A stretch of DNA of 32,000 nt from Saccharolobus solfataricus (lineage in GTDB: Archaea; Thermoproteota; Thermoprotei_A; Sulfolobales; Sulfolobaceae), in contig NZ_LT549890.1 in NCBI RefSeq assembly GCF_900079115.1, positions 2,880,001 to 2,912,000 of the forward strand, read 5' to 3'. Each line of letters begins with the position of its first letter. The first letter of the stretch is position 1. Both the position numbers and the translations under genes were made by a program. The notes beneath the pieces are model-generated. The model was not told where the DNA came from, made no database searches, and worked only from the letters and a program-made list of their open reading frames with translations. Positions 3,971 to 32,000 of this stretch are shown piece by piece.

Positions 3971-5337
3971 AAAAATCGGCTTATTTCAACACAAGAAGCA
4001 AAAAATTTTCATATTTGTTGAAGAAACTAACAGAAAACGAGTTTATATATAAAGAGTAATACCATTTGTCTAGTATTATCAATAGAGGAAAGTAGGTGGA
4101 AGGACGAGATGAACAAGAAAAGGTTAAAGCGAGGGACTCCATAACTCCGTTATGCAAACCATACAAGTATCCAAAACGGAGCTGAAGTCCCTCGCTATAA
4201 ATTTAGCAACAAACAATATTAACGTTATCTCTCAAGATCTAGACCCGGAAATAGTGAAAGCAGCACCATCCTTGCTAACCGGAAACAGAGGAAAATACTA
4301 CTTGAAGGTAGTAAGACGAGGCGAGAAAGTAATTAGTAAAGGTCAGAGAACCTTCAAGTTCTACCCAATCTACAGAGAAGTAAAGGGAGAGATCAACGTA
4401 GTCGCTGTAGATGAGACCGGATTAACCGTGGGAGAAAAGGAACAAGAAAAAGCAGAGGGCTTTCTACTCTACAACTGGAAGAGAAAAGGAGTAAAGATGA
4501 GATCCTTGGACCTCGTATATCCCTTAAGGTTACCCCTCCTAGTGGAGGTAGCAGATTTGAGAAGCGACAGTCCATCACAGTTCCTACTCAGGAGCGTGAG
4601 GGAAGTAAGCCAATACATGGAAATAGATTACGTTGTAGCTGACGCCGGATTCTTGAACCTAGGGGTCATCAAGGAAATGCCCGTGAAGACCATTGTGAGA
4701 GGAAAGTCGAACTTGAAGGGATTCAAGGAACTATCTAACGTTCCATTAGTTGAGAAGAGATACGAGGTTAAGGACAAGGTTTACGTTGCGTATAGGGTCT
4801 TGAAATTTGAAGGGCTTTATTATTACGATGTGGTTTACGTTAAGGGAAAGCCGAGGCACTTTATGTTCGTGACGAACTTCGAGGGAGATCCCTATGAACT
4901 GGCTGAACTCTATAGGTTGAGGTGGCAGGTTGAGGAGGGTTTTAAGGTTAGGAAGGCAAGGATAAGGTATGTTAGGAAGTTGAGTAACAAGATCTTCTTG
5001 TTCCTCTATTACACGGTTCTGGATTCTGCGTGGAATCTAGTGAATCATCTTCTCTTTAACTTCAAGTCCACGTGTAAGAAGGTTTTGTCCTTCGATTCAT
5101 TCGTCAAGCTTCTCTAACTTTCTCGGTGTTCAGAGGAGACTATGCACGTCGTTTTCACCACGTGAGAAAAATTCAGAATTCTCCTCTTATTATTAGAATT
5201 GTACGCTATATTTTTTGCAAATTACCTTAACATGTTATGTTTCATAATAATTTTATTGTTTTTCTCTATATCAATCTCTTTTTGAAAGGACTAATATTAT
5301 ATCTTTCAAATGAAATAATTTGGTGAAACACCACTGG
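3897..5337 (+). mobile_element. IS4-family insertion sequence, 1441 bp (size and family fit the Sulfolobus ISC1439 type; that name is from memory only)
   Basis: Perfect 18-bp terminal inverted repeats: ccagtggtgtttcaccaa at 3897-3914 and its reverse complement at 5320-5337. Flanking 7-bp direct repeat AAGTTAT at 3890-3896 and 5338-5344. One internal DDE transposase ORF. Confidence 0.9.
4152..5117 (+). CDS. DDE transposase (IS4 family)
   Basis: 321 aa. The C-terminal YRLRWQVEEGFKVRK matches the IS4-family Y-(2)-R-(3)-E-(6)-K signature. The ORF lies between the IS terminal repeats. Confidence 0.85.
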   Translation: MQTIQVSKTELKSLAINLATNNINVISQDLDPEIVKAAPSLLTGNRGKYYLKVVRRGEKVISKGQRTFKFYPIYREVKGEINVVAVDETGLTVGEKEQEKAEGFLLYNWKRKGVKMRSLDLVYPLRLPLLVEVADLRSDSPSQFLLRSVREVSQYMEIDYVVADAGFLNLGVIKEMPVKTIVRGKSNLKGFKELSNVPLVEKRYEVKDKVYVAYRVLKFEGLYYYDVVYVKGKPRHFMFVTNFEGDPYELAELYRLRWQVEEGFKVRKARIRYVRKLSNKIFLFLYYTVLDSAWNLVNHLLFNFKSTCKKVLSFDSFVKLL

Positions 5338-12375: not shown

Positions 12376-13038
12376 ATGATAAAAAGTTATACCGTAATAC
12401 TCTCGCACGACGATTGGAGTCGTTATACTGAGAAATTTGATGAAGAGGAATTATATGTAAAAGTAGTTAGAAGAATTCCATCCTTAGATGGACTCACTGA
12501 AAACGTTATGGGTGTAATTTACGCCAAGGACAAGGACTCTTATAAGCAAATAGTTAAAATGCTTAGTAGAAATGCGACAACAATTGACTTTAAAATAATA
12601 GATTTGTATAAAAACAAATCTGGAATCAGAGCAATATACGCATCTGTAGAGAGTCTTAGAGGGAGAATAGCTGAAAGGTTACTACGAGATTGTAGGATTT
12701 TCAGTATGAACGAAACTATATATGAAGGAATGGAAAGATGGAGTATAATTGCTGACTCTGAAAACTTCATCAAGATCATACCAGAGGTGAAAGAGTTAAC
12801 TTACGAGTTTAAAATTATTGAGGAATCTTCAAATCCATTCCTTTCAGTAAAGGAAGAGCTAACACCTAAGGAATTAGCCATTCTGAAACTGGCCTTTGAT
12901 AGGGGATACTTTGAAACACCTAAAAGGATAGGATTAGAGGATTTGGCAAATGAGTTAGGGATTTCTAAACCAGCCATAATGCAGGTTTTAAGAAAAGCTA
13001 TAGCGAAGTTAGCTGAAAAAACTATAAGAGATATTTAA
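12376..13038 (+). CDS. HTH_10 (Bat-type) DNA-binding regulator
   Basis: 220 aa. The C-terminal LTPKELAILKLAFDRGYFETPKRIGLEDLANELGISKPAIMQVLRKAIAKL matches the HTH_10 pattern (L-T-x-x-q-x-e-x-L-x-x-A-x-x-x-G-Y-F-e-x-P-R). Confidence 0.75.
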   Translation: MIKSYTVILSHDDWSRYTEKFDEEELYVKVVRRIPSLDGLTENVMGVIYAKDKDSYKQIVKMLSRNATTIDFKIIDLYKNKSGIRAIYASVESLRGRIAERLLRDCRIFSMNETIYEGMERWSIIADSENFIKIIPEVKELTYEFKIIEESSNPFLSVKEELTPKELAILKLAFDRGYFETPKRIGLEDLANELGISKPAIMQVLRKAIAKLAEKTIRDI

Positions 13039-14188: not shown

Positions 14189-15823
14189 TTACTTTCTTCT
14201 AACTAACACCACTACTACTATAATTATTAGGAGAACTACACCAATTACTATATATATAGTAGTATTTGAAGATGTGGTTGAGGTAGTGGATGTTAAAGGA
14301 GCTGTCGTAGCTGAAGATGTGGCAGTTGATATTTGAGATGTTGATATAGTAGATGTGGCAGTTGAAGAGCTTGTCAATGTTGAAGATGAAGATGGTTGTG
14401 CTGAATAAACTACATAATATGTTGAAGATGGATCATCAAATACTTCTAATTTTCCGTTCAGCATAAAGTAATTGGAAGAGTTTAATTCAACTAATGTGCC
14501 ATTCTCCACCTTATAGACACCAATTATTGAGCTATTACTAAATACTGTAACGTTAAATATAATGTATTGCGAAGTTGTATTAATTTCAACACTCTGTGCT
14601 ATGTGTACCTTACCGTTTAAATTAAGGTTGGTAATGTTTACAATTACTGGGCGAACTGTACTGACATTATGAGTAATGTTATCTTCCGTTAAGACTACAA
14701 ATCTTGATGTAGAATTTACCGTTATTTCTACTAATATACTTTTATGGTTGTGCACTGATACTAAATGGGAAATGTTAACTATTGCGGTTGAAGTCACATT
14801 ACCGTCGTTACTATTTCCTATAATTACTGGAACTCCATTAACGTAAGTGTAACCCATGAAGTTCGCATGTACTTGCTTTACTCCACTAACCGTAACTATC
14901 TTAAGTTCCGTGAATGCGATGTTGTAATTAAGTCCAATCTTAACTGGCATTATCTCTAGATTTCCAACAATACTCGAAATGTGTACATATCCTAGAATTG
15001 TACCATTTACCCCATAAAATTCTATCGTCTCAAAATCTGCACGTATGTTTCCCTTACCTGACATTACTGGAACTATGCCTTCTCCTTTCCAAACTAAGGC
15101 AGGAGTCAGTGTGCCATCGAAGTATGCTGTAGTAACCTTATATCCATTAACCGTTGCATTGCTTTCTGTCCCATTATAGTTAATACTGACCAGTAATGGA
15201 GAATATCTCCTTGGTATTTGCGCTGTCGCGGTTAGCTCTTCACTAACTGATACTTTAGCCTCTACAGATGTTACCGGGAATAAGTATAGGCTTATTTTAT
15301 TGCTTATACTTGCATTTTCTTTATTAATTGTCAATGTTGCATTAGCTATTGTGGAACCGTTTGCGAATTGAAGCACAACTTTACCTGTTCCATTAATATA
15401 CGCATAAGCGTTAATATCAGTGGCATTAAAACCAGCCCATATCAATTCCGTCTCATTTACACTAATTATTACTATTCTTATTAAATTAGGTAAATCAGTT
15501 TTTATCGTAATGGTGTTATTAGTATAAGCTGATACGTTAACATATCCCTCAAATTTCTCTGGAGAAGAAGCAAATAATAGAGTGTAAACTGTTCTGTTGT
15601 ACGTTACCTTAAACGCTTTGCCGTCACTTAGGGTTGTATTATATGTAGCTGAACTTACAGTATAAGTTACTGTACTTGCACTTAATGGACCATTAATACC
15701 GGAGGCTCTGTATACACTATCATATCTTTGATAATACACGTGTATTGTAGGACTTGAACTAGCTGAAATTGGAATTGTTGCGAAAACCGTTAAGAGAAGA
15801 GGTAGGAGGACTAGCCATTTCAT
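14189..15823 (-). CDS. secreted surface glycoprotein with a C-terminal Ser/Thr stalk and TM anchor
   Basis: 544 aa. Signal-like MKWLVLLPLLLTVFATIPISA, many N-x-S/T sequons, a C-terminal SSSSTLTSSSTATSTISTSQISTATSSATTAPLTSTTSTTSS stretch, then a TM segment and RRK. Confidence 0.7.
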   Translation of the reverse strand: MKWLVLLPLLLTVFATIPISASSSPTIHVYYQRYDSVYRASGINGPLSASTVTYTVSSATYNTTLSDGKAFKVTYNRTVYTLLFASSPEKFEGYVNVSAYTNNTITIKTDLPNLIRIVIISVNETELIWAGFNATDINAYAYINGTGKVVLQFANGSTIANATLTINKENASISNKISLYLFPVTSVEAKVSVSEELTATAQIPRRYSPLLVSINYNGTESNATVNGYKVTTAYFDGTLTPALVWKGEGIVPVMSGKGNIRADFETIEFYGVNGTILGYVHISSIVGNLEIMPVKIGLNYNIAFTELKIVTVSGVKQVHANFMGYTYVNGVPVIIGNSNDGNVTSTAIVNISHLVSVHNHKSILVEITVNSTSRFVVLTEDNITHNVSTVRPVIVNITNLNLNGKVHIAQSVEINTTSQYIIFNVTVFSNSSIIGVYKVENGTLVELNSSNYFMLNGKLEVFDDPSSTYYVVYSAQPSSSSTLTSSSTATSTISTSQISTATSSATTAPLTSTTSTTSSNTTIYIVIGVVLLIIIVVVVLVRRK

Positions 15824-15871: not shown

Positions 15872-16582
15872 TCATGAAACGGGTTGAATTTCAAAAAATT
15901 GTCTAACAAAATTTATATCGCGAACCAATATAAACTCATCTGAGGTTTCATTACTACTACTGTTGGTAGACTTTCCTATAAATTTAAAGTAAAGACCTAT
16001 ATCGTTAAGTATTTGTTGTGGCGTCAAATTCTCATAACTCTTACCATAAATATAAGCAGTTACCTTAACATCATCCTCCTTTATAGTTACATTTGCATAG
16101 GTTTGGTTAAGATTTAACATTACGACTTGACCATCTTCAAAATAGAGAATAACATATAATTGAGAAAACGTTATATTAGGTTTGATACCGACAATGTACA
16201 TTCCATGTTCTTTAACGTGTATCTTAAATTTAGCCTTAAGTGAAAATGAATAGGTTTGAGGCTGTTTAGTAGTAGTTGAAGATCCAGAATTAGTAGTAGA
16301 GGACTGAGTTGTAGTGATAGTTGAGGTTGCTCCAGATGTTGTGTTAGTTGTGGTTGAACTAGATGGAGAGATAATTTGCACTGTGGAGACATTTATTGGA
16401 ATCCCGCCTACTGGCTGAGTAGGTCTATTGTGTAGTGTATAATAAAGTTCTATACCTAAAATTACATTTACAATTAAGGTAATTATTACCAAACCTACCA
16501 AGAGTGTTTGTCTATCCACGATTTGTAATTGGTTGAATATTCCATATAAACCTTGGTTCCATGAAACTGTGAAACAATGCAT
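15872..16582 (-). CDS. membrane-anchored protein with a Ser/Thr-rich stalk, unknown function
   Basis: 236 aa. N-terminal TM LLVGLVIITLIVNVILGIELYY, then SSSTTTNTTSGATSTITTTQSSTTNSGSSTTT, then a ~130-aa C-terminal domain. Confidence 0.6.
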   Translation of the reverse strand: MHCFTVSWNQGLYGIFNQLQIVDRQTLLVGLVIITLIVNVILGIELYYTLHNRPTQPVGGIPINVSTVQIISPSSSTTTNTTSGATSTITTTQSSTTNSGSSTTTKQPQTYSFSLKAKFKIHVKEHGMYIVGIKPNITFSQLYVILYFEDGQVVMLNLNQTYANVTIKEDDVKVTAYIYGKSYENLTPQQILNDIGLYFKFIGKSTNSSSNETSDEFILVRDINFVRQFFEIQPVS

Positions 16583-17096: not shown

Positions 17097-17777
17097 ATGC
17101 ATGTTTATAAAGTCAAGCTTGACCTTAAACACGATTCGTGCTGGACATATAAAACGTCTGATTTCAAAGTAAATGCGGAGGTAAAATATCTCTTTCCTCT
17201 AATAACTAAGAATTCAATTTTTGAAATAGCCGAGATTTACTCTGATGATAAAAATGAACTTTCAGATTTTATATCAGCAATTAATAGAAGGTATGGTAAT
17301 AATATAAAAGTTGCTAACATAGATAGGCAGAGGTCTAGTAAAGTGGCTTTATTATACTATTTTAAAAATTTCGACAACTCTGTTACAAGAGTTATGATTG
17401 AGAACAATGCAGTAATAACAAACTTATCCATAAGTAATGGAATAGAGGAGTGGTACGCATATTTCTTTGGAGAGGAAGAGGAGATTCTCTCAAATATATC
17501 GCATGGTCTAAAAAGGATAGACGTTAAGGTAGAGAACATAGATCTGGAAAAAACTAAATTAAACGAAATAAAAAACGATCTAGTCATAATTAACTCCCTA
17601 ACTCCTACTGAGAGGGAAATTCTTACGACTGCAATCAAGTTAGGGTTCTTTGAGTATCCTAAAAGAGTCAGATTAGAGGAGTTAGCTGAGATGTTCGGAG
17701 TTACTAAGGTAACTTTAGATAGGCATATAAGAAATGGGTTAAGGAAGATTTTAAGTCAATTATTTATAAACTCCTAG
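17097..17777 (+). CDS. HTH_10 (Bat-type) DNA-binding regulator, paralog of 12376-13038
   Basis: 226 aa. C-terminal LTPTEREILTTAIKLGFFEYPKRVRLEELAEMFGVTKVTLDRHIRNGLRKIL. The architecture matches the 12376 gene, including an N-terminal H-D-x-x-W motif (HDSCW versus HDDW). Confidence 0.75.
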   Translation: MHVYKVKLDLKHDSCWTYKTSDFKVNAEVKYLFPLITKNSIFEIAEIYSDDKNELSDFISAINRRYGNNIKVANIDRQRSSKVALLYYFKNFDNSVTRVMIENNAVITNLSISNGIEEWYAYFFGEEEEILSNISHGLKRIDVKVENIDLEKTKLNEIKNDLVIINSLTPTEREILTTAIKLGFFEYPKRVRLEELAEMFGVTKVTLDRHIRNGLRKILSQLFINS

Positions 17778-18539
17778 TGATTTATACTGAAATTTAAGGA
17801 TCATATCTGTTACTTTTTGATAAGATATAATCCTCCAGACTTTTCTAGTAACATTTAATTCTATCTACTAAGGTATAAACATAACCTAGCCTCTATATTA
17901 ATTTTTCCGAAATGAAGCTAGTACGTTACGTTAAAACTGGAAAATTATGAAGAGAGAAAGCAGACAAATAGCAATTAAATTTTAACCCATTATTACGTAT
18001 TTGGATATTAACCAAAATGCCTAGTTGGTCTTTGAATACTTTTCCACTGAACGACTATTAGCCTCCAATTTATGATTAGATGCACAACTTCTGTTGGTGA
18101 AACCTCTTAACTCTTAGCGAAAATTTAACAAATCTACAAAGCATAACCAAAAGAAACACGTTATCATTTCCAGTAAGTCTATAGTCTAGTATTATTTTAT
18201 AAAATATTATTAAAAATAATTCCATTGTATTGGCCTTAATGAATACATAAAACTTATCAACTTGATTAATTGATTCCTTGTTATCACTATTTATAAGAAA
18301 CTTATTAATGAATTATAAAGTGTAACAAATTTCTGGAAACAGTAGTGTATAGTTTCTAAATTTTTGATAAAGACCTAAGTGAATTTTACTTGTACGTGTA
18401 ATAGAAGTCATCTCTTTCTATCTAAAAAGGTTTGCAAAATTGTATTTTGAGCTGATTATTGTCCTTCTTGCTTTAAGGTAGTATTCCGTATTATCTGTAA
18501 AGTCTAATGTTTTAATACCTTTCTTACGTTTCTTCTTAT

Positions 18540-19298
18540 ATGCGTAAATTCTGTGACTTAAGTGGAAAAATAGCCGTTGTAACTGGAGGTGCAAGTGGTA
18601 TAGGAAGAGCTATAGCGTTTAAATTTGCTAGTCTAGGGGCTACAGTGGTTTTAGGTGATGTGAAAATGGAAGAACTTAATACTGTCGCAAACGAAATCGC
18701 TCAGCAGACTAGCTCTAAAGTAATTCCACTTTATGTAAATGTGGCTGATTTCAATTCAGCTAAAGAGTTCTATATTAAAGCCACTGAGACTTTGGGAGTA
18801 GACTACGTGGATATTTTAGTAAACAACGCTGGGATAAATAGGGACGCCTTATTCGTTAAAATGACCTATGAGCAATGGGATGAGGTGATAAAAGTTGACC
18901 TATATAGTATGTTTAACATGACTAAGCAAGTTGTTGATGGGATGATAAAGAGAAATTATGGAAGAATTATCAACATGTCTTCGATGAGTTGGTTGGGAAA
19001 CATCGGTCAAGCGAACTATTCAGCAGCTAAAGCTGGGGTCATAGGCTTCACGAAAACTCTAGCGAGGGAATTGGCTAAATATAACATAACTGTTAATGCC
19101 ATAACTCCAGGTTTCATAGATACTCCAATGACTAGGGCGGTTCCTGAAAAGGTTAGACAAAAGATCATAGAGAGAATACCAATGGGTAGAATTGGTAACC
19201 CGGAAGAAGTAGCTAACCTAATAGCTTTCCTATCATCTGAAGAAGCGTCTTATATAACGGGAGAGGTAATAGGAGTTACCGGGGGCCTGATATTATGA
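18540..19298 (+). CDS. short-chain dehydrogenase/reductase, 3-oxoacyl reductase (FabG)-like
   Basis: 252 aa. Cofactor motif TGGASGIGRAIA, NNAG, and the catalytic S...YSAAK. Its stop overlaps the next start (ATGA). Confidence 0.85.
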   Translation: MRKFCDLSGKIAVVTGGASGIGRAIAFKFASLGATVVLGDVKMEELNTVANEIAQQTSSKVIPLYVNVADFNSAKEFYIKATETLGVDYVDILVNNAGINRDALFVKMTYEQWDEVIKVDLYSMFNMTKQVVDGMIKRNYGRIINMSSMSWLGNIGQANYSAAKAGVIGFTKTLARELAKYNITVNAITPGFIDTPMTRAVPEKVRQKIIERIPMGRIGNPEEVANLIAFLSSEEASYITGEVIGVTGGLIL

Positions 19299-20452
19299 TA
19301 ACTGGGTTCGCTAGCAGTCTCTACAAAAAATATGAAGGGTCAACCTTCGAATTATTAGCTGATACGGTATTTTCGGCATTAGAAATTGCGGGTTTAGATA
19401 AGACCAATGTGGATGGAATATATCTTACATATCTGCCTGGTACTTTTGATAGTTACGCTTATTCCCATTTTTTCACAAACCAAGTAGCCCAATATCTTGG
19501 AATAAGACCTAAATTCGCTCAAATTTTTGATTATGGAGGAGCCTCTGCCTTAAGTATGATATATAGAGCATATAAGGCAATTAAGTCTGGAGAAGGTGAA
19601 ACGATTTTATGTATTGTAGGTGGAAAGGCTTCAGAGTTGAGAAATAAAGGAGTTACTGTAGATGCAATAGATAAGGCATACCCTGATGTTTCTCTAACAC
19701 CTTTTGATAGGCTTTTCAGAGGACTTAATGACCTAAATCCAGTATCAGATTACGCACTAGTTGCTAATAGGCATATGTATCTCTTCGGTAGTACGGATGA
19801 GCAAAGAGCCCTAATAGCGGTTAGGCAAAGATTTAACGCATCACAAAACAGTAAGGCAATGTTCAGAGATTTACTCAGTGTAGAACAAGTGTTAAAATCT
19901 CCTTTAGTTTCCTATCCTTTACATCTTCTTGAAATAGTTTACCCTATAGACGGTTTTCACGTTTTTGTAGTAAGTAAAAGAAGTAGCAAATCAGCTCTTA
20001 GAGATATAGATATCTTAGGGTATGGAGAAGCTCATTGGCCTCTAATGCCTGCAGAGCTAGATGAAATAGTATATACCCCAGCCGTCGAAAGTTCAAAGGG
20101 ACTATTAAGCGAAAAGATAGATGCCTTCGAGCTTTATGACTCGTTTACCGTAACCGTTATGTTAGAAGTTGAAGATATCGGTTTAGCGGAGAAAGGTAAG
20201 GGAGGCGTGTTTTTTGAGAATCATGATACTACTTACAAGGGAGATGTTCCTATAAATACTGGGGGAGGTAGCTTGAATACTGGTCAACCAGCTTTCATGA
20301 GTGGTGGTGTCATTTTAGAGGAAGCATTACTTCAATTGAATGATATGGCATATGGCCATCAAGTTAAGGGTGTGAATAAGGTCTTCCTAAATGGGGTGGG
20401 TGGGTGGAATAGATCTCATTCAGTTTCTTTAGTATTAGGTGAGGGTAGATGA
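19295..20452 (+). CDS. thiolase-superfamily (SCP-x/archaeal thiolase-like) protein lacking the canonical catalytic residues
   Basis: 385 aa. Fold-level motifs are kept (PLHLLE..PIDG, NTGGGSL, NGVGG). The nucleophile site reads DYGGASALS (expected xxCASGG). The HDCF motif reads YDSF. GHP reads GQP. Confidence 0.8.
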   Translation: MITGFASSLYKKYEGSTFELLADTVFSALEIAGLDKTNVDGIYLTYLPGTFDSYAYSHFFTNQVAQYLGIRPKFAQIFDYGGASALSMIYRAYKAIKSGEGETILCIVGGKASELRNKGVTVDAIDKAYPDVSLTPFDRLFRGLNDLNPVSDYALVANRHMYLFGSTDEQRALIAVRQRFNASQNSKAMFRDLLSVEQVLKSPLVSYPLHLLEIVYPIDGFHVFVVSKRSSKSALRDIDILGYGEAHWPLMPAELDEIVYTPAVESSKGLLSEKIDAFELYDSFTVTVMLEVEDIGLAEKGKGGVFFENHDTTYKGDVPINTGGGSLNTGQPAFMSGGVILEEALLQLNDMAYGHQVKGVNKVFLNGVGGWNRSHSVSLVLGEGR

Positions 20453-20799
20453 GGTTAGAGGAAATATACTCATACTACGATAAAATAATACGAAGCGGAT
20501 CCTTGCCGTATATTAGATGTAGGAATTGTACGTATACGTTCTTTTACGTAAGGCATGTATGTCCCAGATGTAGTTCGAGAGATTTAGAAATTCTAAGAAG
20601 TAATGGAATCGGTAAGGTCTTTTCGTGGACTAAGATATTTAGGAAAAACGAAAGTTTCATATATGGTATTGTGGAGTTAGAGGAGGGATTTAAGATATAT
20701 TGTAATTTAGCAAGCGACGTTGAGATAGGTGATAAAGTTAAGGTCGATATTATCCCGTTAGAAGATGGGAAGTATAGGGTATTAGCAAACAAGCTTTAA
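20449..20799 (+). CDS. DUF35 family protein (rubredoxin-like Zn ribbon plus OB fold)
   Basis: 116 aa. The C-x2-C...C-x2-C pattern is CRNCTYTFFYVRHVCPRC, followed by an OB-like segment GKVFSWTKIF. The start overlaps the thiolase-like stop (ATGA). Confidence 0.8.
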   Translation: MRLEEIYSYYDKIIRSGSLPYIRCRNCTYTFFYVRHVCPRCSSRDLEILRSNGIGKVFSWTKIFRKNESFIYGIVELEEGFKIYCNLASDVEIGDKVKVDIIPLEDGKYRVLANKL

Positions 20800-21186: not shown

Positions 21187-21723
21187 CTACGACTGGCGTG
21201 TCAAATATGTTCCAAAACTAATTCCCCATATTATTTCCGGATAAACTATTATCCTCTCCATACCTCCTGGTCCTAGGGGACCGTAATCCTTAAGGATATA
21301 TAAGACTAATGAAGCTAAAGTTATTAGACCTAATATGGTCCAGAAGTAATTCCTCCTTATTGAGGTAAATATTGCACCTATTCCTCCAAAAAGAAAAGTT
21401 ATTAAAGCTGCAATCAAATGAGGGAATCCAGTATTCTCGGGAAATATACCAACTAGTGCAGCACCTAACCCTACTAAAAAGACTAATGGTGAGTAGTTTA
21501 CTCTTAATAGTAGTGACGATATTATTACTAATATGCCCATAATCACAATTGACGTATTGAATATTATTGCAGTTCCTCCAACTCCTAGGTCACTGATGTA
21601 ATTATATTTAACCGAGTAATTTGGATATAAAATTTCCGATACTGTAAAAAACAATAAAAATTGTGACACACCTACTAATATAAGATAGCCTGATATCTTA
21701 TCCCTATTTAACATCATCAACAT
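21187..21723 (-). CDS. DUF998-like integral membrane protein
   Basis: 178 aa with about 6 TM segments. ILYPNYSVKYNYISDLG resembles the DUF998 N-terminal motif. Confidence 0.6.
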   Translation of the reverse strand: MLMMLNRDKISGYLILVGVSQFLLFFTVSEILYPNYSVKYNYISDLGVGGTAIIFNTSIVIMGILVIISSLLLRVNYSPLVFLVGLGAALVGIFPENTGFPHLIAALITFLFGGIGAIFTSIRRNYFWTILGLITLASLVLYILKDYGPLGPGGMERIIVYPEIIWGISFGTYLTRQS

Positions 21724-22423: not shown

Positions 22424-23296
22424 CTAAGGTTTCCTTTTTCGCTTAGTTATCAAGAATGAAATTCCCATTCCTAAAAAGTATAAGCTTGATAAGGATAATC
22501 CTATAATTGTTTCCATCACTCCTCCAGTTGTACCTGGCGAAATTATCCACGCAATGATAAAGGAGACTAGGACTCCCCATCTCCAATAATTCCTCCATGT
22601 ACTAGCCTTAACTATTCCCAAGTAAGTCAAACCTATCATTATTAATGGCATTTCAAATGCTAATCCTAGTGATCCCATTAATAGGAAAGTTGTTGATATG
22701 AAAGAACTTAAACTTATTGTAGGTTCTACTGCTGGACCTAAAGACTCAGTATAAAACGATATCATCTTGAACATTAATGGTATTAGAATGAAAAACGCAA
22801 ATAGAGAACCAGAGAAAAAAAGCAAAAAGGCAGGAGCTATGGTCAGCTTAAAGATTTTCTTTTCATGTTCATATAACCCTGGACTTAAAAATGACCAAGT
22901 TTCTCTGATTATGATGGGAAGCGATGTTAATAGTGCAAGGTATAGGGAAACGTAAAGTGACGCATATAACGGGTCGAACAAGTTTATTATTATTATCTTA
23001 GTATTTATGGGCAGTTCATGATAAATAAAGAATTTAGTTACTTTTACCGCTATACTATCATAAAATGACGGATAAGGAATTGGAATTTTTGAGATATTTA
23101 TCCCAAGGAGTGGTATTTGTAATGGATCTATATTTATCCATTCGTAACCCATCATGAAGTAAAAGAAGAATGAAATAGCTAATGCTATAATAATTCTCCT
23201 TAGTCTTATCGCTAATTCTCTTAGGTGATCTAACAATGGTTTCTCTTCAAAAAAACTCTTCTCTTCTTTTCCCCTCTCCTTTGCTTTCTCTTTCAC
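22424..23296 (-). CDS. tatC: twin-arginine translocase subunit TatC
   Basis: 290 aa with 6 TM segments. The N-terminal LLDHLRELAIRLRRIIIA and the overall pattern are typical of TatC. It lies directly downstream of tatA. Confidence 0.85.
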   Translation of the reverse strand: MKEKAKERGKEEKSFFEEKPLLDHLRELAIRLRRIIIALAISFFFYFMMGYEWINIDPLQIPLLGINISKIPIPYPSFYDSIAVKVTKFFIYHELPINTKIIIINLFDPLYASLYVSLYLALLTSLPIIIRETWSFLSPGLYEHEKKIFKLTIAPAFLLFFSGSLFAFFILIPLMFKMISFYTESLGPAVEPTISLSSFISTTFLLMGSLGLAFEMPLIMIGLTYLGIVKASTWRNYWRWGVLVSFIIAWIISPGTTGGVMETIIGLSLSSLYFLGMGISFLITKRKRKP

Positions 23297-29110: not shown

Positions 29111-29807
29111 CGAATTTTAAAAATATATTATAGTAGTATAGGTGCATATATTGGAATCCAAGCTTCTCTTTATGTTAGAAAAATTTTAAAAATACAGTTT
29201 ACTTTATAAAAATTCCTTCTTCTTTTATTTTATGGAATATTTCAATATTAGCTGATAAGGTACAATAAACACAAGTAAGAAGTGAGATAATACAACATAC
29301 ATACGTAATGTACTGATAAACATACAATACTATATGTATTTGAATTGAATCAAATATTCCTATAACTAAGTAAACTCTTACAACAAAAGAATGCGTTAAT
29401 ATCGCAGCTACGGTTGTCAAAACACTCAAAATAATAAATGATATAAGAAGAATTTTCTTGTTTACATTTTATTTATCTAAAAAGCCTTAAAAATACTCTT
29501 CCTTTTCCCATATCACCACATGAGAACTGATCTCGAAATGAGAAATTCAAATCCCTTGATATTTAGATGAATGAGTTGAGCTACATTAACGGTAACCTCA
29601 TAGTGTTTTCTAACAGTAGTCAGTATAGGAACTACCATTCTACTGATCAGCCACTTTATGGTCCTTTATAGTCTTAATACTTAAAATTTAGGTTTCGGAT
29701 TTTTGAAATGGAAGATAACCGACTTTATCTTCCTTATCCCTCTAAAGCTATATAATAAAACCTTTACTGTAACGTTTCAATTAAGATTGATGAGAAAAAG
29801 GGATCAA

Positions 29808-31244
29808 TTACCAACCTTCATACACGGTCTTCTCCTTAAGATAAAACTCCAGAGCCTCTTCTCCCATCTCTTTCCATGTGGTTGCTCCAGAATTCTTAAA
29901 TCCTCCAAATGGTGCTTGTAATTCCAATCCAACTGTGGGCTTATTAACCTTTATAACTCCTGCTTCTACTTTACTGACAAACTCATTAATTGCCTTAATA
30001 TCGCTTGCCACTATTCCAGCTGTATGTCCGTAATCTACAGCATTAACTAGCCTTATGGCCTCGTCTAAATCTTTAGCTTCAGTTACACTTAAAACTGGAC
30101 CGAATATCTCCTCCTTAAATAGTCTCATGTCGGGTGTGACTCCTTCGAATATTGTAGGTTCTAAGAAATATCCCTTTCCGGATAGTGTATTTCCGCCATA
30201 GACTAATTTAGCACCTGCACTCTTACCGTACTCTATGTACTCTAAGTCTTTCTTAAATTGGCCCTCATCTACAACTGGACCCATGTCAACGTCTTCAGTA
30301 CCTGGTCCTACTTTCCACTTTTTAACTCTTTCCAGTAGTCTTTGTCTAAATTGACTATATACGTCTTTATGAACTATTAACCTACTTGTTGCAGTGCATG
30401 ACTGGCCAGTTAGTCCAAATCCTCCCCTTACTGCTAATTCAGCAGCTAACGTTAAATCAGCACTCTTATCTACGTATAGTGCATTTTTACCTCCTAGTTC
30501 CAATTGAATTCTGGTCATTCTATTTTTATTTCCTACAAGTTTATAAATTCTCTTACCTACCTCAGTTGATCCAGTAAAGGATACCGCTGCTATGTTTTCA
30601 TCAGTTACTATTGTATCTCCCACCTCACTTCCTTTACCGACAATTAAATTCACAACTCCATCCGGTAGCCCGGCTTTAGATAATACATCTACTAATTTAG
30701 CAACCATTAATGGTGTTTTCGACGCTGGTTTTATTATTGCAGTGTTACCAGCTGCTAGAGCCGGGGCTAATTTCCACACCGGTATTGATAATGGGAAATT
30801 CCATGGAGTAATTAAGGCTACTACGCCTAAGGGTTCCTTTACTGTAAATATCCTAGTATTAGGATCTGCTGAAGGGAGCGTTTTTCCAGATATTTTAAAT
30901 GCTAATGCCCCATAAAACTTAAGCAAATTATAACTCCTAACTACCTCAAACATGCTATCCTTTAGGGTCTTACCCTCTTCCAATGTCATCAATAACGCAA
31001 ATTCTTGAGCTTCTTGTTCCATTAATTCCCCAGCCTTGAGTAATATTGCACCTCTTTTGGGTGCCGGAGTCTTTGACCATTCGTCGAATTTAGCTACAGC
31101 CTTGTTTATGGCCTCCTTGACATCGTCTTTTGTATGTGTTCTAATTTTAGCTAATATGTGATCCCTATCGGCTGGGTTAATGTCAATGTATTCCTCTCCA
31201 CTGCCCTTAATCCACTTGTCAGCTAATTCTTGATACGATTTCAT
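29808..31244 (-). CDS. dopDH: NADP-dependent aldehyde dehydrogenase; 2,5-dioxopentanoate (alpha-ketoglutarate semialdehyde) dehydrogenase type
   Basis: 478 aa. ALDH catalytic motifs LELGGKNA (Glu) and GQSCTATSRL (Cys). It closely matches my recollection of S. solfataricus DopDH, and it is divergent from kdaD as in that organism. Confidence 0.8.
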   Translation of the reverse strand: MKSYQELADKWIKGSGEEYIDINPADRDHILAKIRTHTKDDVKEAINKAVAKFDEWSKTPAPKRGAILLKAGELMEQEAQEFALLMTLEEGKTLKDSMFEVVRSYNLLKFYGALAFKISGKTLPSADPNTRIFTVKEPLGVVALITPWNFPLSIPVWKLAPALAAGNTAIIKPASKTPLMVAKLVDVLSKAGLPDGVVNLIVGKGSEVGDTIVTDENIAAVSFTGSTEVGKRIYKLVGNKNRMTRIQLELGGKNALYVDKSADLTLAAELAVRGGFGLTGQSCTATSRLIVHKDVYSQFRQRLLERVKKWKVGPGTEDVDMGPVVDEGQFKKDLEYIEYGKSAGAKLVYGGNTLSGKGYFLEPTIFEGVTPDMRLFKEEIFGPVLSVTEAKDLDEAIRLVNAVDYGHTAGIVASDIKAINEFVSKVEAGVIKVNKPTVGLELQAPFGGFKNSGATTWKEMGEEALEFYLKEKTVYEGW

Positions 31245-31284
31245 ATTAACTAAATCACCTTAATGGTTTTTATTTTGCTATGCT

Positions 31285-31292
31285 AACATGTT
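31285..31292. promoter_or_regulatory. ARA-box palindrome AACATGTT in the dopDH-kdaD divergent promoter
   Basis: Exact AACATGTT lies 10 nt upstream of a TATA-like TTTATTAAA (31303-31311) and about 40-45 nt upstream of the kdaD start codon. The motif and position match those reported for arabinose-induced Sulfolobus promoters. Confidence 0.65.
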
Positions 31293-31332
31293 TACTACCA
31301 ACTTTATTAAACGCTGAACGCATTTTATCATG

Positions 31333-32000
31333 ATGAAATTATTTAGAGTTGTAAAGAGAGGATATTATATAAGTTACGCAATATTAGATAATAGTACAAT
31401 AATAAGGTTAGATGAAGACCCGATTAAGACTTTAATGAGGTATGCGGAAAATAAGGAAGTCTTAGGAGATAGAGTTACTGGAATAGATTATCAGTCATTG
31501 CTTAAGAACTTTCAAATTAACGATATTAGAATAACAAAACCAATGGATCCTCCAGAAGTCTGGGGATCTGGAATATCATATGAAATGGCTAGGGAGAGGT
31601 ATTCTGAAGAGAACGTAGCTAAAATATTAGGCAAGACAATTTACGAAACAGTTTACGATGCAGTTAGACCAGAGATATTCTTCAAGGCTACTCCAAATAG
31701 ATGTGTGGGACATGGCGAGGCAATAGCGGTAAGAAGCGATTCCGAGTGGACACTTCCAGAGCCGGAATTGGCAGTAGTATTAGACTCCAATGGTAAAATC
31801 TTAGGCTATACCATAATGGATGATGTTTCCGCCAGAGATTTGGAGACTGAAAATCCTCTCTACTTACCGCAATCTAAGATATACGCTGGTTGTTGTGCCT
31901 TTGGACCAGTGATAGTTACCCCAGATGAGATTAAGAATCCATATGGACTTGATATCACTTTAAGGATTATGAGAGATGGTAAAGTGTTTTTTGAAGGATC
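31333..32000 (+). CDS. kdaD: 2-keto-3-deoxy-D-arabinonate dehydratase (FAH family); C-terminus runs off the window
   Basis: Manual translation gives MKLFRVVKRGYYISYAILDNSTIIRLDEDPIKTLMRY...PPEVWGSGISYEMARERY...PEPELAVVLDSNGKILGYTIMDDVSARDLE...YAGCCAFGPVIV. This is near-identical to my recollection of S. solfataricus KdaD. An alternative ATG is at 31330. Confidence 0.85.
   Translation, partial: MKLFRVVKRGYYISYAILDNSTIIRLDEDPIKTLMRYAENKEVLGDRVTGIDYQSLLKNFQINDIRITKPMDPPEVWGSGISYEMARERYSEENVAKILGKTIYETVYDAVRPEIFFKATPNRCVGHGEAIAVRSDSEWTLPEPELAVVLDSNGKILGYTIMDDVSARDLETENPLYLPQSKIYAGCCAFGPVIVTPDEIKNPYGLDITLRIMRDGKVFFEG

Follow-up and report, generated by a model that had tools for sequence, protein, structure and literature searches.

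What reaction, if any, can a thiolase-fold protein perform when none of the catalytic residues of a thiolase is left, and why is it encoded together with a short-chain dehydrogenase/reductase (SDR) and a DUF35 protein? This question is raised by three overlapping genes of Saccharolobus solfataricus (GCF_900079115.1), located in a stretch of 32,000 nt of NZ_LT549890.1 (2,880,001–2,912,000, forward strand) that was analysed as a whole and is referred to here as the window. A preliminary description of this DNA had reported a gene trio joined by ATGA start/stop overlaps, and both overlaps were read from the sequence at 19295–19298 and 20449–20452. The three genes are as follows.

18540–19298, plus strand: SDR gene, open reading frame (ORF) of 252 aa
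19295–20452, plus strand: thiolase-fold gene, ORF of 385 aa, Cys-less
20449–20799, plus strand: DUF35 gene, ORF of 116 aa, stand-alone

The reading that we tentatively favour, at slightly less than an even chance, is that the thiolase-fold protein and the DUF35 protein would form a complex acting as a Cys-independent acyl-CoA C–C lyase of the retro-aldolase class, which would work with the SDR as an NAD-type 3-hydroxyacyl-CoA dehydrogenase.

Catalytic residues and conservation of the thiolase-fold protein

Public annotation names this protein acetyl-CoA acetyltransferase throughout (AcaB-10 in S. solfataricus), and literature searches, including those for AcaB-10, ST0096 and archaeal DUF35 thiolase-like or retro-aldol proteins, found no study of the archaeal clade to which it belongs. 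Among the Pfam profiles, Thiolase_C_1 alone scored above its cut-off, while Thiolase_N reached 21.6 bits versus a cut-off of 26.4. The AF2 model (pLDDT 87, pTM 0.91) had the thiolase alpha-beta-alpha-beta-alpha fold, with Foldseek TM values of 0.8–0.88 to thiolase-fold structures.

The preliminary description had listed three substitutions at thiolase catalytic positions, all of which were borne out when they were checked by HMMER alignments to PDB chains. The segment D-Y-G-G82-A-S aligned to E-A-A-C-A-S of the Pyrococcus furiosus (7yvy) and M. thermolithotrophicus (6esq) thiolases, by which the nucleophilic Cys is replaced by Gly82. In the alignment to the L. mexicana SCP2 thiolase, ELYDSFT (Y281-D282-S283-F284) matched EVHDCFT, so that the HDCF motif is lost, and NTGGGSLNTGQP matched NTGGGLLSFGHP, so that the His of the GHP motif is replaced by Gln331. 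Some 80 homologues carry these same residues without exception. Archaeal acetyl-CoA acetyltransferases (ACATs) are defined by the motifs CxS, HDxF and GHx (PMC12960953), and because the corresponding positions read Gly, YDSF and GQP here, all three archaeal ACAT motifs are lost. The complete set of signature residues comprises G82, P149, Y153, Y281-D282-S283-F284, N321, Q331, G369-G370-W371 and H375.

Whether a catalytic triad could be supplied from other positions was checked in the alignment of the orthologues, and no Cys was found conserved anywhere in the clade. Moreover, Gly at the nucleophile position was invariant in approximately 120 homologues, and Q331 was invariant in the clade. With Gly82 and without any conserved Cys, the protein therefore cannot be a Cys-dependent Claisen thiolase, in agreement with the earlier statement that a Claisen thiolase was unlikely. 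Two candidates for substitute catalytic residues were rejected: C106 occurs in 7 of 12 orthologues and is located in a core strand, and a Ser283–His160 dyad was dropped because positions 160 and 283 do not strictly co-vary, YDC with His and YDS with Tyr both being present.

The closest homologues, about 80 proteins of 49–91% identity, form a compact clade, and its distribution, which the preliminary description had suggested determining, was found restricted to acidophilic archaea. Members occur in the Sulfolobales (Saccharolobus, Sulfolobus, Metallosphaera, Acidianus and Sulfodiicoccus), in the Thermoplasmatales (Ferroplasma and Acidiplasma), in Marsarchaeota, and in Conexivisphaerales and other Nitrososphaeria, and G82, P149, Y153, H160, YDSF, GQP and GGW-NRSH are common to all of them. 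In a representative library of 1.84 billion sequences at 50% identity, the clade was represented by one entry scoring 650 bits and a further two scoring 471, after which the scores fell to 287. Approximately 130 of the 140 nearest representatives combine Gly at the nucleophile site with Y-D-x-[FY], where x is S, A, C, D, P or N; thus, it is the Tyr that stays the same, while the third residue varies. The nearest representatives beyond the clade bear YDC[YF]+GQ, the signature of the bacterial aldolase Sal.

Conservation within the clade is concentrated at the former active site. Y281, D282, N321 and Q331 are invariant across approximately 50% sequence divergence, D282 together with Y281. In the clade alignment, the four former catalytic loops had a mean entropy of 0.42 bits versus 1.43 bits elsewhere, and invariant columns made up 20 of 48 positions in the loops versus 17 of 337 in the rest (Mann-Whitney p = 6e-14). 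That these loops are conserved most argues for a working pocket, although the former catalytic loops are structurally important in any thiolase fold as well.

Known thiolase-fold/DUF35 systems and the proposed reaction

In both the sequence and the fold searches, the top match was 9myr, the CtSal–ShyDUF35 aldolase of Comamonas testosteroni (E 2.9e-48 in sequence; Foldseek E 1.5e-36, TM ~0.8). It was followed by the uncharacterised ‘thiolases’ 4u4e and 4yzo/ST0096, true archaeal thiolases, TbSLP, and Ltp2 (6ok1), for which the match was weaker than for Sal (E 1.9e-19). An Ltp2-like module had been proposed earlier; the nearest characterised relatives are indeed DUF35-bound retro-aldolases, but the closest of them is Sal and not Ltp2.

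In CtSal, for which the SEQRES index equals the number used in the paper plus 24, Tyr302 is the base, Cys304 the acid, Gln161 and Gly391 form the oxyanion hole and Arg216 binds CoA (PMC12329534). CtSal, which is approximately 30% identical to the protein studied here, has in common with it the Gly at the nucleophile site, the Gln at the GHP-His site and a DUF35 partner gene. Tyr302 of its YDCY motif (Y294 in Ltp2) corresponds to the invariant Y281, Gln352 (Tyr344 in Ltp2) to Q331, and the oxyanion residue Gly391 to G370. The two systems differ in that the DUF35 of CtSal is the C-terminus of the MaoC hydratase Shy, whereas here it is a separate protein of 116 aa, and in that the partner enzyme of CtSal is a hydratase, whereas here it is an SDR, plus a ligase in most lineages. 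Given the archaeal host, a steroid substrate is implausible, unlike in CtSal. TcLtp2–ChsH2 of Thermomonospora curvata (6OK1) likewise shares the Cys-less thiolase fold, the DUF35 partner and the first Tyr (Y294, equivalent to Y281), but its motif is YDHF and not YDSF, with His296 in the place of Ser283.

Three further systems resemble the trio in part. The archaeal thiolase/DUF35/HMGCS system has the SCP2-type fold (TM ~0.88) and a stand-alone DUF35 in common with it; however, CxS, HDxF and GHx are intact there and all lost here, and the third partner is HMGCS there and the SDR here. A large bacterial clade of YDSF+His proteins, including 4U4E of Sphaerobacter thermophilus, has the Gly at the nucleophile position, YDSFT and a downstream DUF35 gene as here. 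The bacterial relatives, most of which have YDSF plus His, are frequently encoded in clusters with SDR, ligase, acyl-CoA dehydrogenase (ACAD) or MaoC genes, but they keep the GHP-type His, lack the archaeal GGW-NRSH signature and are only 30–36% identical, and their function is uncharacterised too. In the fatty acid synthesis (FAS) complex of Sulfolobus acidocaldarius, a member of the same archaeal order, a thiolase-fold protein, a DUF35 protein and a FabG-type SDR are combined likewise: it consists of the ketothiolase (KT) Saci_1121, the DUF35 protein Saci_1120, the SDR Saci_1104 and the MaoC protein Saci_1085 (bioRxiv 10.1101/2024.07.05.601840). Its KT is an active thiolase, whereas the protein here is without catalytic Cys or His; Saci_1104 is strictly NADPH-dependent (bioRxiv 10.1101/2024.07.05.601840), whereas the SDR here has an NAD signature; and MaoC belongs to that complex, whereas the genes here have no MaoC gene linked to them. 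KT/DUF35 pairs expressed by themselves are insoluble.

The SDR matched adh_short_C2 (PF13561, E 5.6e-64) as well as adh_short in Pfam, passed the NCBIfam FabG equivalog NF004198 (314 bits versus a cut-off of 296), and had FabG (2p68) and a (3R)-hydroxyacyl-CoA dehydrogenase (2et6) as its best PDB matches. The motifs TGxxxGIG, NNAG and S...YxxxK are intact and kept in the orthologues. In SDRs, an Asp at the end of beta-2 is the signature of NAD(H); here Asp40 occupies the beta-2 end (VVLGD), Asp is present in all archaeal orthologues of the SDR, and the NADPH-type basic pattern does not apply. The enzyme thus looks NAD-dependent and of the FabG/acetoacetyl-CoA-reductase type. The preliminary description had called it a 3-oxo/3-hydroxyacyl reductase, of which the FabG/3-hydroxyacyl-thioester type stands, whereas the NAD signature points to the catabolic direction and not to the reductase of a biosynthetic complex.

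In the DUF35 protein, zf-ChsH2 (PF12172) scored 35.6 bits (cut-off 23.2) and OB_ChsH2_C (PF01796) 27.5 bits (cut-off 27.1), corresponding to a C4 zinc ribbon formed by C24, C27, C38 and C41 (CxxC...CxxC) and a C-terminal OB fold. Its PDB matches were Trf (6htj), 6esq_E, 7pxp_A, 6ok1_B and 9myr_B.

In the reaction that we propose for this set of proteins, Tyr281 would take the proton of the beta-hydroxyl group of a 3-hydroxyacyl-CoA, and cleavage of the C-alpha/C-beta bond would yield an aldehyde or ketone and an enolate, which derives from acetyl-CoA or from a different short acyl-CoA. This enolate would be stabilised by the backbone of Gly369/Gly370 and the side chains of Asn321 and Gln331, and protonated by Ser283, His375, Tyr153 or water as candidate donors; since position 82 is Gly, no acyl-enzyme is possible. 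The DUF35 zinc-ribbon/OB protein would clamp the loop domain and shape the substrate cleft, as in Sal and Ltp2. The NAD-type SDR would either convert this substrate back and forth between its 3-hydroxy- and 3-oxoacyl-CoA forms or act on the carbonyl product, and in most lineages the acyl-CoA synthetase of the operon would activate the free acid, its gene being absent from the operon and from the whole window in the present case.

Gene context and competing explanations

The gene context was compared among 17 archaeal ortholog loci; a scan of genome contigs listed at least eight archaeal loci, and further contexts were obtained via contigs encoding homologues, whereas a scan of metagenome contigs with the single protein yielded one irrelevant locus only. 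The DUF35 gene follows the thiolase-like gene on its 3′ side in 15 of 16 informative loci; the cluster also holds an orthologous SDR gene in 14 of the 17 and an acyl-CoA synthetase gene (long-chain-fatty-acid-CoA-ligase-like) in 11. The ancestral order is SDR–ligase–thiolase-like–DUF35, as found in Acidianus, Thermoplasmata and Nitrososphaeria, while it is rearranged in Conexivisphaerales and in Marsarchaeota, the latter having thiolase-like–DUF35–SDR–ligase. The operons of Metallosphaera and Saccharolobus, including that in the window, are without the ligase. The trio is thus the remainder of a module of four genes, of which an acyl-CoA synthetase gene is usually one.

Some loci carry additional or different enzymes. 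In locus L007, where SDR and ligase are absent, genes of a CoA-transferase of family III and of an enoyl-CoA hydratase of the crotonase type directly precede thiolase-like–DUF35–MFS; this follows the hydratase-to-aldolase logic known from Shy/Sal and ChsH/Ltp2, with no dehydrogenase between. Aldehyde dehydrogenase (ALDH) genes are located directly downstream in Sulfodiicoccus and divergently upstream in locus L008, and in S. acidocaldarius, whose orthologue is AAY81271.1, an arabinonate-dehydratase equivalog (698 bits versus a cut-off of 650; L001 4881–5999) lies between the ligase and the thiolase-like gene.

Paralogous Cys-less proteins occur in other settings. In a Saccharolobus metagenome-assembled genome (MAG), paralogue P0048 is encoded with TetR, acyl-CoA synthetase, ACAD and a fusion of 3-hydroxyacyl-CoA dehydrogenase and enoyl-CoA hydratase (HCDH/ECH; L090/L091 4760–12374), and the sole ‘thiolase’ of this beta-oxidation cluster is the Cys-less paralogue with its DUF35, a canonical thiolase being absent. 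An HpaB monooxygenase gene is found 3 kb upstream of the cluster. A canonical thiolase/DUF35/MaoC/ligase set stands back-to-back with another Cys-less pair, and SCP2, ACAD and LplA are encoded there too. In S. acidocaldarius SUSAZ, a YDAT paralogue and its DUF35 adjoin genes for Rieske dioxygenase alpha and beta subunits (L087 2283–7526), an arrangement that resembles the bacterial ibuprofen cluster ipfABDE; MFS transporters and a luciferase-like monooxygenase are also encoded there. In the ipf pathway as proposed, the thiolase-like/DUF35 pair strips the acyl-CoA side chain from a beta-hydroxy intermediate. IpfDE has been called a thiolase releasing propionyl-CoA (PMC9195938).

Several observations weigh against a retro-aldolase. 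The catalytic acid of CtSal, Cys304, corresponds to Ser283, and the C304S variant of CtSal is inactive (PMC12329534). The oxyanion residue Gln161 is aligned to P149, although the alignment lies there in a low-pLDDT stretch (143–148), and the CoA-binding Arg216 corresponds to P203, an Arg that true archaeal thiolases are also without. The general acid of Ltp2, its second catalytic Tyr (Tyr344), is Gln331 here, so that of the two catalytic positions of Ltp2 at which Tyr residues were to be looked for, only that of Y281 holds one. As one Tyr of two is present and Cys304 of Sal is Ser, the protein is not Ltp2-like in its catalytic residues, and as Cys304 of Sal and the second Tyr of Ltp2 are both absent, it is a member of neither family. 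Judged from the alignments, it keeps the sole residue common to both aldolase types, the base Tyr, without the general acid of either, and this missing acid is the main weakness of the proposal. Furthermore, of all partners the SDR has the tightest linkage, though an aldolase has no obvious need of a 3-hydroxyacyl-CoA dehydrogenase; the operon is without a MaoC hydratase; and the presence of P0048 in a beta-oxidation cluster complete but for a canonical thiolase hints at a thiolase-like role.

A non-catalytic scaffold, the alternative mentioned in the preliminary description, is unlikely in our view: the Cys-less dimer and DUF35 would do no more than bind acyl-CoA and serve as a dock for the SDR and possibly for enzymes encoded elsewhere, and the Cys-less protein might form heterodimers with a true thiolase. 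CoA pathways for bulky substrates often contain inactive partner subunits, as exemplified by ChsH1/H2 and BbsCD, the three canonical catalytic residues and the general acids of Sal and Ltp2 are all gone, and one paralogue adjoins a canonical thiolase set. In the FAS complex of S. acidocaldarius, the SDR was shown to bind the KT/DUF35 core directly (Schmerling et al., bioRxiv 10.1101/2024.07.05.601840). However, the strong conservation of the pocket disfavours a scaffold, the former active-site loops with the invariant Y281, D282, N321 and Q331 being the most conserved segments; a second thiolase is absent from most operons, and the presence of a hydratase gene in L007 and of an ALDH gene in L096 (Sulfodiicoccus) is sensible only if a reaction occurs. 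Slightly less probable again is another acyl-CoA chemistry, namely Cys-free thiolysis or Claisen chemistry via a ternary complex, in which CoA would directly attack a 3-oxoacyl-CoA formed by the SDR, decarboxylation of a 2-carboxyacyl-CoA, or hydrolysis. The succession of ligase, NAD-dependent 3-hydroxyacyl-CoA dehydrogenase and ‘thiolase’ would be the natural order for the degradation of 3-hydroxy acids, and the P0048 cluster, with TetR, ligase, ACAD and HCDH/ECH, has no canonical thiolase; yet the many true thiolases encoded in Sulfolobales would be able to serve those clusters. Thiolysis by a thiolase fold without the nucleophilic Cys would be unprecedented, as we know of no such enzyme, and the His that activates CoA or Cys in thiolases is lost as well (Gln331). 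With regard to decarboxylation, weak malonyl-CoA decarboxylase activity of the Cys-less relative TbSLP is cited in PMC12329534, whereas CtSal is without this activity (PMC12329534).

A very improbable explanation starts from the DUF35 product, which would mainly be a Trf-like factor releasing aIF2 from leaderless mRNAs, its linkage to the thiolase-like gene not being metabolic. Among solved structures, Trf/Sso2509 comes closest to the DUF35 subunit (6htj, E 1.2e-27, 46% identity); it was published as an aIF2/mRNA translation recovery factor (PMC6996347), and its reported role, the release of aIF2 from mRNA, is unrelated to acyl-CoA metabolism. Trf is, however, a paralogue and not an orthologue, a thiolase-fold partner is present in every solved DUF35 heterocomplex, and the DUF35 gene adjoins the thiolase-like gene in nearly all informative loci. 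Among the collected loci, the best match of Trf itself (60% identity) is again thiolase-coupled, a DUF35 gene (L090 7140–7502) that overlaps the stop codon of the Cys-less thiolase gene; Trf therefore belongs to a DUF35 subfamily genomically tied to thiolase-like proteins. The Trf papers are silent on a thiolase-like genomic context, and the role of Trf in its native context becomes a question.

Thiolase-fold aldolases with DUF35 are a known kind of enzyme; new here are the combination of residues, the occurrence in archaea and the operon with SDR and ligase. It is doubtful, all points taken jointly, that the clade represents a new catalytic type of thiolase-fold enzyme, the first in Archaea, together with a thiolase-independent route of acid shortening. 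If this were true, Tyr281 would make or break an acyl-CoA C–C bond without the Cys of Sal or the second Tyr of Ltp2 and, with the NAD-type SDR and the ligase, 3-hydroxy or 3-oxo acids outside the reach of ordinary beta-oxidation would be shortened, branched isoprenoid-derived or aryl-substituted acids being candidate substrates. In the reverse direction, aldehydes would be extended with acetyl-CoA, avoiding the endergonic Claisen step. Several ‘KT/DUF35 pairs’ of Sulfolobales would then not be thiolases, and the DUF35 proteins of the Trf subfamily would primarily be subunits of the Cys-less enzymes. If the clade is active, the range of thiolase-fold/DUF35 retro-aldolases would extend beyond the steroid catabolism of bacteria into Archaea, and a third set of catalytic residues would be added, which is of interest for the ways in which the thiolase pocket is put to new uses.

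The annotation as acetyl-CoA acetyltransferase means that thiolases are over-counted in reconstructions of Sulfolobales, Thermoplasmatales and thermoacidophilic Nitrososphaerota. In S. acidocaldarius, ‘seven KT/DUF35 pairs’ were counted without separating the Cys-less ones (bioRxiv 10.1101/2024.07.05.601840), and at least three proteins of this organism (P0017, P0057 and P0078) are without catalytic Cys and His; therefore, that count mixes true thiolases and Cys-less proteins. This is of relevance to the debate on archaeal fatty-acid metabolism, in which a thiolase-fold/DUF35/SDR assembly was recently described.

Operon layout and surroundings

The window is AT-rich (~35% GC), and its proteins are approximately 91% identical to their Saccharolobus shibatae and S. 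solfataricus counterparts. Apart from the three genes, the following features belong to or precede the operon.

20438–20444, plus strand: Shine-Dalgarno-like GGTGAGG, read from the sequence, 4 nt 5′ of the DUF35 ATG, within the end of the thiolase-like gene
18510–18517, plus strand: TATA-like box TTTTAATA, read from the sequence, 23–30 nt 5′ of the SDR ATG
17097–17777, plus strand: HTH_10 transcription regulator (Pfam PF04967), upstream of the operon

GGTGAGG would serve as a putative Shine-Dalgarno sequence for DUF35, and the TTTTAATA box as the predicted promoter of the operon; from its distance of 23–30 nt to the SDR ATG, the transcript would be leaderless or near-leaderless. Upstream of the SDR gene is a gap of 760 bp (17778–18539), of which only the last 50 bp match S. 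shibatae (92%), and neither an ORF of more than 58 aa nor an Rfam match was found in it. A comparable gap of ~740 bp is present in S. shibatae despite the unrelated sequence. A tblastn search of the window with the orthologous acyl-CoA synthetase and with the MR_MLE protein gave no match, and a ligase remnant was therefore rejected, given also the empty gap; no MaoC gene was found within the window by ORF list and Pfam. The HTH_10 gene, which holds an equivalent position in S. shibatae, is a possible regulator of the operon, its membership being uncertain. The idea of a conserved regulator was dropped, as the HTH_10 copy near the Acidiplasma operon is without detectable orthology.

This HTH_10 gene is one of two paralogues of the bacterio-opsin-activator type located at most 5 kb apart (12376–13038 and 17097–17777), between which lie genes for Ser/Thr-rich, probably glycosylated secreted proteins (14189–15823 and 15872–16582, minus strand). 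Relative to S. shibatae B12, the region upstream of HTH_10 is taken up by unrelated genes, encoding Sulf_transp, TusA, DoxD, Ser/Thr-rich secreted proteins and a DDE transposase (window 4152–5117).

Genes of pentose oxidation (the Weimberg pathway) recur beside the operon in Sulfolobales. A KdaD-like FAA_hydrolase gene and a 2,5-dioxovalerate-dehydrogenase-like gene are found near the operon in S. shibatae (L003 305–2709) and directly downstream in Sulfodiicoccus (L096 6309–8654), and such a pair is also present at 29752–32000 of the window. This proximity may reflect inherited synteny or a functional link. Compared with S. shibatae B12, the aldehyde dehydrogenase block (window 29752–32000; L003 516–2765) is inverted and sits on the operon's opposite side.

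TatC is encoded by one intact ORF of 290 aa in the window (22424–23296, minus strand), versus three fragments of 74, 64 and 167 aa in S. shibatae B12 (L003 9115–10109), suggestive of gene disruption or of an error of sequencing in that record. A gene for a DUF998 membrane protein is convergent with the Saccharolobus operon and located downstream of it (window 21187–21723, minus strand; L003 7879–8403), and a DUF998 gene is also found in a Conexivisphaerales MAG, divergent and directly upstream of the thiolase-like gene (L094 4344–4919).

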